Positions 13,511-52,237 of a stretch of DNA of 64,000 nt are shown here, in pieces. Source of the stretch: Spirochaetia bacterium (lineage in GTDB: Bacteria; Spirochaetota; Spirochaetia; UBA9216); NCBI GenBank assembly GCA_963675665.1, contig OY776510.1, forward strand, positions 1,440,001 to 1,504,000, given 5' to 3'. How positions within the stretch are numbered: position 1 is the stretch's first letter; each line of letters opens with the position of its first letter. Below the pieces are notes generated by a model that ran no database searches, was not told the DNA's origin, and saw only the letters and a program-made list of their open reading frames with translations. Made by a program: the position numbers and the translations under genes.

Positions 13511-14623
13511 ATGAGAATCGGAGTAGCAAAGGAAATTAAAAGACATGAATACAGGGTCGGACTGACTCCTGCAAATACGAGAGCATATATAAATGCAGGC
13601 CATTATGTATCTGTGGAGGCGGGTGCCGGAATGAATGCGGGTTTTCCCGATCAGGCATATATCGAAGCCGGCGCCGTGATTGAAACCGACAAGAAAAAGC
13701 TGTTTGCTGAAGCCGACATGATTATCAAGGTTAAAGAACCGCTGGCTGAAGAATACGATTTGTTTCATGAAGATCAGATTCTTTATACATATCTGCACCT
13801 TGCAGCCGACGAAGCCCAGGCAAGGGCTTTAATGGCAAAAAAAGTAAAAGCCGTGGCATATGAGACAATAGAGGAGTCCGATCGGTCGCTGCCCTGTCTG
13901 ACGCCGATGAGTGAAATTGCCGGGCGTTTGTCGGTACAGGAAGGTGCCAAGTACCTTGAAAAGCCGTTCGGCGGACGCGGTGTTCTTCTCGGAGGAGTGC
14001 CGGGTGTTCCCAGGGGAAAGGTGGCAATTCTCGGCGGAGGTGTTGTCGGAACCAATGCAGCTAAAATGGCTATCGGCTTGGGAGCGGATGTTACTGTGCT
14101 TGATATCAGCGCAAGACGTCTCGGCTATCTTGATGATATTTTTGAGACAAGAATAACAACTCTTTACAGCAATGAAGAAAATATACAAATGGTTTTAAGA
14201 GAAAGCGACCTGATTATAGGCAGTGTTCTTATTCCGGGCGCAAAAGCTCCACATCTTGTCAGAAGAGAACATCTCGGCATAATGAAGCCGGGTTCTGTTC
14301 TTGTGGATGTTGCCGTTGATCAGGGCGGATGTATTGAGACAACTCATCCTACAACTCATGATAATCCTATTTTTGAAGTAGAAGGTATTATACATTACTG
14401 CGTTGCGAATATGCCCGGAGCGGTGTCTCTCACTTCTACTCTTGCCCTTACGGGGGCTACGCTGTCATACGGTCTTCTTCTGGCGGGAAAGGGCGTAGAA
14501 GACGCCGTAAAAGAGTCTGCTGCATTACGCAAAGGGCTCAATATTTATAAAGGACACTGTGTGTATGAACATGTAGCCGAATCGCTTGATTTGGAGTATA
14601 CTCCGTTAGAGACGCTTATATAG
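13511..14623 (+). CDS. ald: Alanine dehydrogenase
   Basis: MRIGVAKEIK...EYRV, GGGVVG Rossmann motif, VDQGGC and VANMPGAV. Confidence 0.96.
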   Translation: MRIGVAKEIKRHEYRVGLTPANTRAYINAGHYVSVEAGAGMNAGFPDQAYIEAGAVIETDKKKLFAEADMIIKVKEPLAEEYDLFHEDQILYTYLHLAADEAQARALMAKKVKAVAYETIEESDRSLPCLTPMSEIAGRLSVQEGAKYLEKPFGGRGVLLGGVPGVPRGKVAILGGGVVGTNAAKMAIGLGADVTVLDISARRLGYLDDIFETRITTLYSNEENIQMVLRESDLIIGSVLIPGAKAPHLVRREHLGIMKPGSVLVDVAVDQGGCIETTHPTTHDNPIFEVEGIIHYCVANMPGAVSLTSTLALTGATLSYGLLLAGKGVEDAVKESAALRKGLNIYKGHCVYEHVAESLDLEYTPLETLI

Positions 14624-14626
14624 GAG

Positions 14627-14769
14627 GAATGATAAAATTGCTTCCATGCAATTTTATCATTTTGAAGTTGTGAAGCAAAAACTGGAGCGCAGTTTAAACT
14701 GCAACACAGTTTAGCTTTACAACTTCACCTGTTAAAAACCCGCATCCTTGCGGGAATGTTTTATAGGAG
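14627..14769 (+). mobile_element. Putative non-autonomous miniature element (MITE) with IS110-identical ends, inserted in an AGGAG site
   Basis: 14622-14637 (AGGAGGAATGATAAAA) equals IS110 left junction 49729-49744. 14759-14769 (TTTTATAGGAG) equals IS110 right junction 51105-51115. The interior consists of three hairpins. Confidence 0.75.
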
Positions 14770-14778
14770 AAGAGGGAC

Positions 14779-15213
14779 ATGCAGCTGGATGAAACCGATT
14801 GGAAGATTATCAATATTCTGAGAGATTCGCATGTCCCCAACAGCTCTATAGCCCGAACCCTTGATTTATCGGAAGGGGCTATTCGGCAGCGGTTGAAAAA
14901 ACTGAAAGATTCCGGAGTTATGATAGTACGTGGAATGATAAACCCGGACATTCTGGAAAACCAGTTGATAGCAATGGTTGCAGTGACTGTAGCGGAATCT
15001 TCTCTTCTTGAGACCAAGGCAATTGAAATTTCCAAACTGGAAAATGTGCAATCTGTAAACATCACTACCGGGAGATATGATCTATTGGTAGAAGTCCTGG
15101 TAGATTCAAACAAAGGACTTGTAAAATTTCTGACCGGGGAACTCTCACAAGTTAACGGAATCTCTTCAACCGAAAGCTTCATTATGCTCAAGGGTTACAA
15201 TAAGTATATCTAA
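14779..15213 (+). CDS. Lrp/AsnC-family regulator (AldR-like)
   Basis: LDETDWKII, HTH and TTGRYDLL motifs; adjacent to ald. Confidence 0.92.
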   Translation: MQLDETDWKIINILRDSHVPNSSIARTLDLSEGAIRQRLKKLKDSGVMIVRGMINPDILENQLIAMVAVTVAESSLLETKAIEISKLENVQSVNITTGRYDLLVEVLVDSNKGLVKFLTGELSQVNGISSTESFIMLKGYNKYI

Positions 15214-49314: not shown

Positions 49315-49414
49315 GGGGGCTTAATAGTTAAATCGGATACCAATATGTATATTAGGTTTAACGTGTAAGGTAAAATAGCTTGACAAGTTGTATTGTTTGG
49401 CCGATAATGAATAT

Positions 49415-49723
49415 GTGGAAGCATATTTCAAAAACAAGGAATTGGAAAAGCTTTATACAACAAATAAAAGTAAGAAATACAAACTCGAACAACATGTAAT
49501 AAGTAACTTCTTTGAAGTTGTGGCTATTATCGCAGCCGCAAAGGATATCTATGATTTCAGGGAAAAACCGTCTTTGAATTTTAAAAAAATGAAAGGTTTT
49601 CAAAACAGGTACTCTTTCAGGATCGACAGAAAATACCGGCTTGAGACTGAAATTGAATGGGAGAATGAGAACAAGACGGTAGGAATTATCGGTATTGATG
49701 AAGTAAGTAATCATTACCAATGA
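49415..49723 (+). CDS. higB: HigB (RelE/ParE superfamily, killer-protein type) toxin
   Basis: FKNKELEKLY, PSLNFKKMKG, YSFRIDRKYRL and C-terminal SNHY. GTG start lies 6 nt after TTGACA-17-GATAAT. Confidence 0.85.
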   Translation: MEAYFKNKELEKLYTTNKSKKYKLEQHVISNFFEVVAIIAAAKDIYDFREKPSLNFKKMKGFQNRYSFRIDRKYRLETEIEWENENKTVGIIGIDEVSNHYQ

Positions 49724-49758
49724 TAATAAGGAGGAATGATAAAAAGTCTTCATGAGCT

Positions 49759-49911
49759 GGTGAATTGATATACTGCCTTAACTTTAATTGAGGCAGTAAG
49801 GTTACTGTTCGACATTTTTACTGGTCCGCGAGACCGTTTAGGAGATTGAAGAGCCGTAACCGAAACATTCAATGGTCTGCGAGACCGGATAGGAGAATGG
49901 AACAATTCACC
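49759..49911 (+). ncRNA. Putative IS110 bridge RNA
   Basis: Closing stem GGTGAATTG/CAATTCACC, 5' hairpin 49771-49798, and two GGTC-YGCGA-GACC-centred loops whose flanks match the target and donor sites. Confidence 0.75.
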
Positions 49912-49946
49912 GTATAGGCACTGCTTCAAACTATTGGAGATAGAAC

Positions 49947-51059
49947 ATGAAGATGAGTATTGGCGTGGATCTTCACAAAACGCAGTTTACAGTATGCCTT
50001 TTAAGTGAAGACCGAAAAATTGATCAATTGGGAATGTATCCGACCAGCGGAAATGGTTATGGAGCATTTCTGAAAATGCTGGATGAATATTGTGAAGAGG
50101 AATATGAGTTGAGAGCAGCGGTGGAAACAACCGGGAATGCCCGTTATTTCCGCAATAAACTGTTAAAGGCTGGAGTCGAAGTGGTTGTAGTGAATACTTT
50201 GAAATTCAAGGTAGTGAATGAATCTGTAAAAAAGACAGACAAACATGATGCACGCACCCTGGCGGAGTTTCTTGAGAAAGACATGCTGCCTGAATCGATA
50301 TTATGTTCCCAAGAGAGTGAGGATATTCGAAGGGTGCTGAAATCCAGGTCGATACTGGTAAAATCTGTTGTGTCGTTAAAGAACCAGGTGCATGGCTTAT
50401 TACTTGGTTATGGAATAGAGACCAAACGCGGACAGCTGCAGAGTAAAAAAGAAAGGCAGCGAATCCTGAACGGTCTCGAGGACCACGACTTTTACGGAAG
50501 CGCTGCCAAAACGGTAATACCGTTACTGGATATGATAGATAATCAGGCATCGCAAGTCAAGCAGCTTGAAAAGGTTTTGGCTGAGCTTGTGGAGGACGAT
50601 GAAGATGTTGAGCTTCTGCAGACAATACCAGGCGTGGGTCTAATAACAGCAGCAACAGTAAGAGCCTATACAGACGATATCGGCAGATATGATAGTGCGA
50701 AGAAATATGCAGCAAACGCCGGGCTTGTGCCATGGGTGCAGAACTCAAATATGACAATACATCATGGACATATAACAAAGCGTGGGCCTGTAGAACTGAG
50801 GACAGCCTTCGTACAGATGGTGATGGGAATGGTTCGTATGCAAAAGAAGACCGGGACGTACCGAATAATGACGAAGTATGCAGCGATGAAGAAGCAGAAA
50901 GGCTCGGGTAAGAGTGTAATAGCTGCCGCCCGCAAGATGAGCACTTTGGTATATACAATTTTAAAAACCAGAGAGCCGTTTGATCCGATGAAAATGGCTT
51001 TTAGAAAAGAATACAGGGAAATGCAGGCAGCAGCATGGGAAGCTGTAATGGTCGGTTGA
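49947..51059 (+). CDS. IS110 DEDD transposase (bridge recombinase)
   Basis: GVDLHK (D), AVETTG (E), KTDKHDA (D, D); C-terminal TIPGVG and GLVPWVQNS...GHITKRG with the catalytic Ser. Confidence 0.95.
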   Translation: MKMSIGVDLHKTQFTVCLLSEDRKIDQLGMYPTSGNGYGAFLKMLDEYCEEEYELRAAVETTGNARYFRNKLLKAGVEVVVVNTLKFKVVNESVKKTDKHDARTLAEFLEKDMLPESILCSQESEDIRRVLKSRSILVKSVVSLKNQVHGLLLGYGIETKRGQLQSKKERQRILNGLEDHDFYGSAAKTVIPLLDMIDNQASQVKQLEKVLAELVEDDEDVELLQTIPGVGLITAATVRAYTDDIGRYDSAKKYAANAGLVPWVQNSNMTIHHGHITKRGPVELRTAFVQMVMGMVRMQKKTGTYRIMTKYAAMKKQKGSGKSVIAAARKMSTLVYTILKTREPFDPMKMAFRKEYREMQAAAWEAVMVG

Positions 51060-51121
51060 TATCCGACTAGATCATAAGCTTATATTTTTAGCTTGTGGTT
51101 GACTTTTTATAGGAGAAAACG

Positions 51122-52237
51122 ATGGCAATGATCAGGGATTTAAAACCGGCAGTTTTGATTGGAGCCGGGGATATTATAAAAAGGGAACTTGAATATAACG
51201 GTTGGTCACAGGAAGATCTCGCAGAAATTACCGAGCTTTCAGGAAAAACAATCAGCCAGTTAATAAACAATAAACAACGGGTTACGGTTGAGACAGCAAA
51301 GCTGCTTTCTAATGCATTGGGCTCAAGTCCTGAATTCTGGCTGAATCTGGACAACAATTACAGGCTGCAGCTTGATGATGAAACCGATAAGGAATCAGCA
51401 GTAAAGACGAAGGCTGAAATTCGCAAGTATATGCCGGTTGCAGAAATCTGCAGGAAAGGCTGGTACTGCAGCGACAATACAGCTGAAGGATATAAGTCAG
51501 TATATAAAGATATCTGGAACCGGGATGATATTGATTTTTTTGTCTATGATAATCCGGATATCGAATATTGCGCGCGCAGGTCGAAAGAAGATGAGCAGTT
51601 CACGCAATACTACTCTCAGACCTGGGCGAGGATAGCAAAAAATCATGCAGAGAAAATTGATGTACCTGATTATAATCAGGCTCTGTTAAAAAAAATCTCC
51701 GAAACTCTATCCGAATACACAATTCAACCAAATGGAGTCAGGCGAATAATAAACGATTTAAATTCAGCAGGCGTCAAGGTTTTTGTTCAATCCCATCTAT
51801 CCAAAACATACCTTGACGGAGCCTGTTTCTTTGACGGAAAAAATCCGGTGATTGTTTATACCGCGCGATACGACAGGCTAGATAACTTCTGGTTTACGCT
51901 TGCTCATGAGATCGCCCATGTGCTTCTTCATTTATCTCCTGATAATGATAAATGTTTTCTGGATAATCTCGATTCTGAGAATACAACAAAAAAAGAAAAA
52001 GAGGCTGATGCAGATGCTGAAAAAATGCTGAAAATCAGGGAGATCCTGAAATTGGCAAAGCCGTACAGCAAATATCTTTCCGAAGCGAATCTTCGAAATA
52101 TTTCCGGACAACTGAAAATAGAAGTCTCGGTTATCCTGGGGGTTCTTCAACATCACGGAATAGTGGATTACAGGAAACTGAACAAGTTTAAAACAAAGGC
52201 AACACCTATCTTACCTGTGGAAATAATGATGGGATGA
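51122..52237 (+). CDS. higA: HigA antitoxin (Xre HTH) fused to an ImmA/IrrE-type zinc metallopeptidase domain
   Basis: WSQEDLAE HTH and SPEFWLNL, then RYDRLDNFWFTLAHEIAH (HExxH). Confidence 0.88.
   Translation: MAMIRDLKPAVLIGAGDIIKRELEYNGWSQEDLAEITELSGKTISQLINNKQRVTVETAKLLSNALGSSPEFWLNLDNNYRLQLDDETDKESAVKTKAEIRKYMPVAEICRKGWYCSDNTAEGYKSVYKDIWNRDDIDFFVYDNPDIEYCARRSKEDEQFTQYYSQTWARIAKNHAEKIDVPDYNQALLKKISETLSEYTIQPNGVRRIINDLNSAGVKVFVQSHLSKTYLDGACFFDGKNPVIVYTARYDRLDNFWFTLAHEIAHVLLHLSPDNDKCFLDNLDSENTTKKEKEADADAEKMLKIREILKLAKPYSKYLSEANLRNISGQLKIEVSVILGVLQHHGIVDYRKLNKFKTKATPILPVEIMMG

Follow-up and report, generated by a model that had tools for sequence, protein, structure and literature searches.

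A Spirochaetia IS110-family insertion sequence and its MITEs with a bridge RNA likely set for generic translation-initiation regions

The window analyzed here is a stretch of 64,000 nt from the forward strand of contig OY776510.1 (positions 1,440,001 to 1,504,000) of a Spirochaetia bacterium, and coordinates up to 64,000 follow its own numbering. On its plus strand lies an IS110-family element of 1,382 bp (49734..51115), flanked upstream by an ORF for a HigB-like toxin (49388..49723 in the ORF list; Pfam PF05015, E = 5e-6), which ends in the TGA at 49721-49723, and downstream by an HTH/M78 ORF (51122-52237), both on the same strand as the element. The element codes for a recombinase of 370 amino acids (49947..51059, plus strand), identified as an IS110-family RNA-guided transposase by Pfam, NCBIfam, and PDB matches. 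The Pfam domains PF01548 (E = 9e-18) and PF02371 (E = 1e-17) give it the N-terminal DEDD/RuvC-like plus C-terminal Tnp architecture, the match to NCBIfam NF033542 (“IS110 family RNA-guided transposase”) scored 216.8 bits against a cutoff of 140, and the PDB matches were ISCro4 (E = 7e-16) and the IS621 transposases (E = 6e-15). By its protein matches and architecture, the stretch 49734-51115 is a member of the bridge-RNA kind of IS110 element. The genome, a single contig of 5.15 Mb, holds 15 copies at 99.6 to 100% identity, all at unrelated loci. In a contig of a related organism the site is empty: the letter corresponding to 49723 is joined to that of 51111 with four other letters in between, and the order is stop codon, one AGGAG, AAAACG, and ATG. 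The close relatives (40 genomes) contained only fragments and one 69%-identical copy, and added no further sites.

The insertion has left the left target half ATAAGGAG (49726..49733, plus strand) in place, as seen in all 15 IS copies and by comparison with the empty site; its AGGAG (49729-49733) is the original Shine-Dalgarno (SD) sequence of the downstream gene. The left end of the element, GAATGATAAAAAGTC (49734..49748, plus strand; delimited by alignment columns and the inverted repeat), contains the donor right half GAATG, which the donor loop reads, and TGATAAAAA, an extended -10-like box, and its alignment columns G5 to A11 are invariant. The right end, TTGACTTTTTATAGGAG (51099..51115, plus strand), was recognized by direct reading and is kept in nearly all relatives. 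It carries the -35-like box TTGACT and terminates in TATAGGAG, which is at once a new SD for the downstream gene and a recreated left target half. The right target half follows at 51116..51124 (plus strand) and consists of the 6-nt spacer AAAACG and the ATG of the HTH/M78 ORF. A perfect 10-bp subterminal inverted repeat, ATAAAAAGTC (49739-49748) and GACTTTTTAT (51101-51110), brackets the donor core and overlaps the -10-like and -35-like boxes.

Joined to each other, the two ends would read ATAGGAG|GAATG and, as a reading of the sequence only, would place TTGACT 17 nt from TAAAAA, the latter preceded at a distance of two bases by a TG; both TTGACT and TG-n-TAAAAA are conserved in relatives. The circle junction would in this way build a sigma-70-type promoter for the bridge RNA and the recombinase, an expected feature of the IS110 family. 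Two nucleotides past the original SD, the left junction also has an ATG that opens a 10-codon ORF, MIKSLHELVN (49736-49768). It is not conserved, the relatives whose ends carry GCACG having no ATG there, and is probably incidental to the TG-n-TAAAAA box. The crossover is confined to GGAG, with 5 to 8 nt common to both sides. Across all junctions just one dinucleotide never varies, the final AG of AGGAG, which on the opposite strand is the CT usual for the family, and we infer that the crossover falls within it.

Both ends are shared with a family of miniature elements (MITEs) of 100 to 160 bp, with about 29 copies in the genome. One of them, a non-autonomous copy of 142 bp with ends GAATGATAAAA...TTTTATAGGAG, lies in the window (14628..14769, plus strand) between an alanine dehydrogenase ORF (13511-14623) and an Lrp/AsnC ORF (14779-15213). 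At this site the stop codon of the alanine dehydrogenase ORF, TAG, overlaps TAGGAG (14621-14626), so that stop and next-gene SD share bases. The census of MITEs started from 39 candidates with left end plus hairpin, among which 11 had no recognizable right end and were left out, and copy 742183 was added. Of those left out, the two at 2714856 and 1310538 resemble diverged MITEs that precede an ATG; candidate 4501539 was excluded as a false positive.

An earlier note on this DNA had described the IS between higB and higA and the MITE between ald and lrp as sitting at an AGGAG between a stop codon and the next start, oriented as the operon, and had expected the same of other copies. Both insertions are present, each with one AGGAG at the left junction and a second in its right end, from which the ATG of the next gene is 6 nt away in the IS and 9 nt away in the MITE. 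Every one of the 15 IS copies reads ...AGGAG|GAATGATAAAA on the left and ...TATAGGAG|N5-7-ATG on the right, with the recombinase and the downstream gene on the same strand, and the right end supplies an SD at each, as the note's regenerated AGGAG implied. IS and MITEs together have 44 right junctions, 39 of them terminal, that is, with no other element behind. At these, an ATG follows the AGGAG after 5 to 9 nt on the same strand in 37 cases and a TTG takes its place in the other two; the spacing has a modal value of 6 nt (24/39; 12/15 for the IS). The ORFs that begin there have at least 90 codons in all 39 cases (median, 262). The expectation was largely borne out, since all copies, 15 IS and the MITEs alike, are co-oriented with the downstream gene and none of the 39 terminal junctions falls inside an ORF. 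The part that did not carry over is the stop-to-start position, true of both named insertions and common without being a general rule: a same-strand ORF ends within 60 nt upstream at about 16 of 37 sites (crude ORF calls), the remaining sites having longer intergenic DNA or old MITE remnants upstream.

Some copies are stacked. Three MITEs lie head to tail in one array (C1, about 2973062-2973370, minus strand), an IS is found directly behind a MITE in at least three tandems (C1:894941, 3764691, and 4930171), and degraded MITE hairpins occur in several other IS left flanks. The guide T next to AGGAG is the same as the T in the right end, which in this lineage makes the right junction itself a target, and the tandem MITE-MITE and MITE-IS arrays are consistent with a right junction that acts as a regenerated target.

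The siting of the IS at AGGAG-N5-7-ATG is far beyond chance. The genome has 6,609 AGGAG sites, of which 840 (12.7%) have an ATG 5 to 7 nt downstream, and among its 811 TAGGAG sites the figure is 16.9%. As a stricter background we took the 188 unoccupied TAGGAG sites outside a crude coding mask. Here 45% are followed at 5 to 9 nt by an ATG that starts an ORF of 80 codons or more, and against this rate the 37/39 junctions give P = 4e-11 and the IS alone (15/15) P = 7e-6. Spacing 6, found at 27.6% of 923 unoccupied AGGAG-ATG gene starts, is enriched 2.2-fold at the junctions (P = 1e-5; IS alone, 3.7e-5). Besides the 39 junctions that are occupied, the genome has 85 TAGGAG-N5-7-ATG gene starts without an insertion. 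Survivorship may have contributed to the pattern of sites, since intragenic insertions would be lost.

It might be argued that the RNA reads the SD half only, that an ATG is near because AGGAG with a T/A-rich stretch before it is mostly a real ribosome-binding site (RBS) and insertions elsewhere are lost, and that the CAU of the target loop (see below) is structural or serves a handshake with GAATG. We consider this unlikely. It accords with the six spacer bases, since occupied spacing-6 sites have the same composition as ordinary AGGAG-N6-ATG starts, which means that in this genome hardly any specificity can be detected from the part of the guide facing the spacer, and with a spacing that varies both here and among relatives. 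It does not account for the gap between the 45% of unoccupied, crudely non-coding TAGGAG sites that are followed by a start and the 37/39 occupied ones, nor for the excess of spacing 6.

The leader from the left end to the ATG of the recombinase is 213 nt long and folds with z = -4.3. The core of the putative bridge RNA (49759..49911, plus strand) consists of an outer stem (49759-49767/49903-49911), a 5' stem-loop (49771-49798), and the target-binding and donor-binding loops, two internal loops each built around a GGTC-N5-GACC hairpin. For 25 aligned related leaders from genome contigs, RNAalifold predicted 26 pairs, compensatory changes occurring in 11 of these, and invariant G-U pairs fix the sense of the RNA to the recombinase strand. 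No Rfam family matched 49400-51400 at E values up to 1; a covariance model made from the consensus found 26 further copies at E ≤ 4e-15 and one weak match (E = 0.003). The stretch 49811-49845 reads cgaCATTTTTACT-GGTCCGCGAGACC-GTTTAGGAGa, and within it the target loop (49813-49845, plus strand) has CAUUUUUACU as its 5' side and GUUUAGGAGA as its 3' side. Written as DNA, the 5' side is CATTTTTACT (49813..49822, plus strand), marked out by the conservation of its CAT, by ATG-anchored covariation, and by guides that have no CAT; the hairpin GGTCCGCGAGACC occupies 49823..49835 (plus strand), and the 3' side, GTTTAGGAGA (49836..49845, plus strand), was recognized by its matches to left flanks. The donor loop, CATTCAAT / GGTCTGCGAGACC / GGATAGGAGA, follows at 49866..49896 (plus strand).

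The hairpin sequence GGTCYGCGAGACC occurs on the plus strand at 49823 and 49874, with one further match, imperfect at a single position, on the minus strand at 50472 (0.03 matches in window shuffles). A stretch of the recombinase ORF (50464..50485, plus strand; codons ILNGLEDH) is complementary at 20/22 positions to the target-loop hairpin and 3' guide (49822-49843). Such complementarity at 17 to 20 of 22 positions was found in 13 of 29 elements, each of the 13 having 67% protein identity or more, with shuffled queries reaching at most 16; it has the same offset in L017, L018, L027, L028, L037 to L039, L041, L042, L070, L149, and L199, and the 16 more distant elements of the 29 showed nothing of the kind. 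The triplet opposite the variable guide bases matches them at 24/39 positions. This stretch may mask the target loop over a long range or may regulate the recombinase mRNA.

To compare guides with sites, we used relatives of the element from two scans. Genome contigs yielded 80 loci with 32 to 79% protein identity. Relatives down to about 52 to 53% identity, found in MAGs of Spirochaetota, Syntrophales, Desulfobacterales, Dehalococcoidales, and Dysgonomonadaceae, have the same ends, loop architecture, and siting habit: copies lie before an ATG in 10/10 cases in an Oceanispirochaeta MAG, 8/9 in a Syntrophales MAG, and 6/6 readable cases in Marispirochaeta, and relatives with a single copy are mostly found before an ATG as well. 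A scan of metagenomes with the 17-nt right end added 26 elements whose bridge RNA was recognized by the covariance model. Of the 80 metagenomic loci fetched, 45 without a recombinase relative (several of them without a nearby ATG) were left out because the 17-mer may be a chance match or belong to a MITE with an unread guide, and six more had a recombinase relative and no usable bridge RNA (L122, L126, L135, L137, L150, and L185; no nearby ATG at L122, L135, and L185). In all the covariation tests below, related elements are not independent samples.

The donor loop would pair with ATAGGAG|GAATG, the sequence formed when the element is excised and its ends are joined, its 3' side AUAGGAG having the sense of the right end and its 5' side CAUUC being the complement of the left end. 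Across the 25 relatives, 97.6% of the cells between the donor-loop 5' side and left-end columns 1 to 5 are paired, nine of them with changes on both sides (as in CGUGC with GCACG). A score this high was not reached in any of 500 shuffles, and slid registers gave 18 to 40%. Donor loops of bridge RNAs are described as behaving likewise, complementary to the ends of their elements (PMC11208160).

The 3' side of the target loop has the same sense as the SD-bearing strand and therefore pairs with the complement of (T)TTAGGAG. For the three guide positions that precede AGGAG, agreement with the left flank was seen at 53, 42, and 28 of 57 sites, against 0.37, 0.33, and 0.29 for non-cognate guides at those positions, and the family-level permutation test is significant (P = 0.0002; 13 guide families, 57 sites). 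Thus, UUU in this genome goes with T(T/A)T, UAC in Oceanispirochaeta with (T/A)AC, and CAA in Syntrophales with AAA. Judged by these two sets of matches, the bridge RNA does read the SD-side flank and the ends of its own element. The recombinase gene itself, here and in relatives, has an RBS of GGAG or AGGAG with the ATG 7 nt on (49936-49946 here). Just 5' of this motif, the letters differ from the target guide that the element itself carries (ATTGGAG here), and in L018 the recombinase RBS GTGAGGAG likewise mismatches the guide CAAAGGAG, which may be a way of avoiding self-insertion.

The 5' strand of the target loop is always 10 nt long, ends in U, and starts with CAU in 24 of the 25 aligned relatives. 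The CAU is complementary to a start codon and the U-rich tract to an A-rich spacer. We compared the variable guide bases of 28 CAU guides with the right flanks at 103 sites in four registers. With the ATG anchored at any spacing, the permutation test gave P = 0.0002 (0.444 versus 0.342), the signal lying in the three bases that adjoin the start codon; a fixed spacing of 6 nt gave P = 0.016. A spacing of 5 nt, marginal in the first data set (P = 0.037), faded to P = 0.30 with more guides. Both halves of the target loop thus correspond to, and covary with, their flanks, and the earlier note's central idea of a guide for translation-initiation signals holds. Its register, TTAGGAG|AAAAATG with the ATG 4 nt on, does not.

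In that register the target loop would be read like the donor loop, with TTAGGAG directly followed by AAAAATG, a reading that we regard as very improbable. Homology with the donor loop, whose five paired nucleotides abut the core, does predict a spacing of 4 and counts against our preferred reading; the last three bases of both 5' sides also look like a common NNU linker, and L037 and L196 sit at spacing 4 with matches of 6/7 and 3/4 (by eye). However, this spacing is found at 0/39 junctions of the genome itself, where the mode is 6, at 1/44 relatives from genomes and 1/19 from metagenomes, and the register shows no covariation (P = 0.47 in the first data set, P = 0.65 in the full one).

Three relatives, L071 (a Leptospira MAG), L128, and L162, have 5' strands without CAU, together with the 3' guides TTGAGAG, CACGGAG, and CACAGAG. 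None has an ATG within 3 to 10 nt of its junction, while 26 of 28 CAU-guide families do (Fisher P = 0.002 for CAU-less guides versus ATG-less sites). The left flank of L162 matches its guide perfectly, and in L128 only the right flank agrees with the guide, at 6/6 positions in an unbroken row when read in the spacing-6 register (by eye), a pattern that recalls the “half-match” insertion reported for IS621 (10.64898/2026.08.31.748434). The target loops of these three elements appear to have been reprogrammed to sequences other than RBSs. As counterexamples, L131 and L168 have a CAU guide and no ATG within 10 nt, and L133 has a spacing of 10.

These data bear again on whether the RNA reads more than the SD half. 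The conservation of CAU may be structural, because RNAalifold pairs its CA with a UG across the loop, on the 3' side, and the 3' sides of both loops read AGGAGA(A/U)UG, complementary to CAU. Against this, the guide bases next to CAU covary with those next to the ATG, and L071, L128, and L162 retain the 3'-side AUG, without CAU, at sites lacking an ATG. The ATG-anchored covariation, the preferred spacing, and the CAU-less guides at ATG-less sites support a pairing of the 5' side in which CAU would read the start codon and its adjoining bases. As for recognition of the site by the recombinase protein instead of an RNA, or repeats that are host regulatory cassettes and not mobile at all, we find either scarcely credible. 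AGGAG and ATAAAAAGTC are highly conserved and could be protein sites, nothing more specific pointing that way, whereas the guide-flank covariation on both sides together with that of the donor loop, the 15 copies of about 100% identity at unrelated loci, the empty site, and membership of an RNA-guided family all argue against it.

We therefore favor, as the likely explanation, an active IS110 insertion sequence with a MITE family, whose target loop is set for a generic translation-initiation region through both of its halves. The 3' side, UUUAGGAG, would pair with the complement of an SD AGGAG preceded by a T-rich stretch, and the 5' side (CAU, 6 nt, and U) with the spacer and start codon on the SD-bearing strand. 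For the latter we infer a best register with CAU opposite an ATG that starts 6 nt after AGGAG, 5 to 9 nt being tolerated. The 10-nt strand would span the last G of AGGAG (probably facing the terminal U), a 6-nt spacer, and the ATG, and the optimal site, TTTAGGAG-GTAAAA-ATG, would be a strong RBS of textbook type. Among relatives the spacing ranges from 3 to 10 nt, a variation that contiguous pairing would not lead one to expect. After insertion, the right end ...TATAGGAG takes the position of the old SD, so the downstream gene keeps an SD with the original spacing and no ORF is cut.

More tentatively, and with some doubt on our part, the element may represent a widespread clade (Spirochaetota, Desulfobacterota, and others) characterized by a two-anchor, spacing-tolerant guide, a site inverted with respect to IS621 and IS900, co-transcription with the host operon, and renewal of SD and target by the right end. 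If so, any gene with a strong RBS would be a harmless and reusable landing pad, and bridge-RNA pairing would tolerate bulges of 1 to 3 nt separating two anchors, which the targeting rules described for IS621 do not include. What the favored reading would provide is an RNA-guided, sequence-level account of the SD/start-codon insertion of IS900-type elements and a natural bridge RNA tuned to a generic signal and not to a unique repeat. Damage would be avoided by rebuilding the SD, and the target-like right end would permit both tandem stacking and a MITE family. For genome engineering, the apparent spacing tolerance and the longer start-side guide depart from IS621 rules, and for annotation such elements could mark true start codons.

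Insertion of IS900-type elements at SD sequences and start codons (RBS-start) was reported decades ago in the older literature, and SD/start-codon targeting as such is not new. The target motif given for IS900, an IS110-family element of Mycobacterium avium subsp. paratuberculosis, is CATGNNNNNNTCTCCTT (PMC8141618), the reverse complement of AAGGAGA-N6-CATG, that is, an SD, a spacer, and a start; our comparison with IS900 and its IS901/IS902/IS116 relatives is by this motif. In the same account, IS900 insertions are rarely in coding sequence, and the complementary strand carries a further ORF, “hed,” that makes use of host signals (PMC8141618). There, however, the motif is given in IS sense, with the transposase antisense to the target gene, while here the recombinase is in sense in 15/15 copies, and the spacing from AGGAG to ATG is 8 instead of a mode of 6. 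The earlier note's remark that such targeting is undescribed for bridge RNAs stands insofar as no such explanation was found, and gives way insofar as the SD-start target is known for IS900 (PMC8141618). In the freely accessible literature covered, no paper gives a bridge-RNA account of SD/start-codon or IS900 targeting.

The IS1111/IS110 elements guided by seekRNA (PMC11187229) resemble ours in the RNA-guided DEDD transposase and the short subterminal inverted repeats, here a 10-bp pair, and differ in that the guide RNA lies here 5' of the gene, as in the IS110 type. Their described targets are attC sites, transposon ends, or REPs instead of initiation regions, and the single occurrence of “ribosome binding site” in that paper is in the context of a cargo cassette. 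With IS621 and ISCro4, as they are presented in PMC11208160 and PMC11208158, the element shares the DEDD/RuvC plus Tnp recombinase and a bridge RNA at the left end with target and donor loops that each read both strands around a 2-nt core. It probably has a CT core as well, and its joined ends, as read from sequence, would rebuild a promoter at the RE-LE junction as theirs do. The similarity at the protein level is distant (E about 1e-15) and mainly in the C-terminal domain. From the published texts and the sequences, the strand of the loop with left-flank and right-end sense would be the 5' one in IS621 and the 3' one here, and with this reversed polarity the site would be read in the opposite direction relative to the recombinase gene. 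The start-codon-side guide has 10 nt here and 9 in IS621. The target of IS621 is described as REP sequences with a near-perfect match, mismatches being poorly tolerated (PMC11208160), in contrast to the degenerate, spacing-tolerant initiation signal seen here. Finally, insertion of IS110 elements is said in a 2026 preprint not to recreate the target (10.64898/2026.08.14.744561), whereas here the left donor resembles the left target and insertion does recreate it. What looks new is that SD and target are rebuilt, that copies form tandem arrays, and that the element lies in sense orientation.
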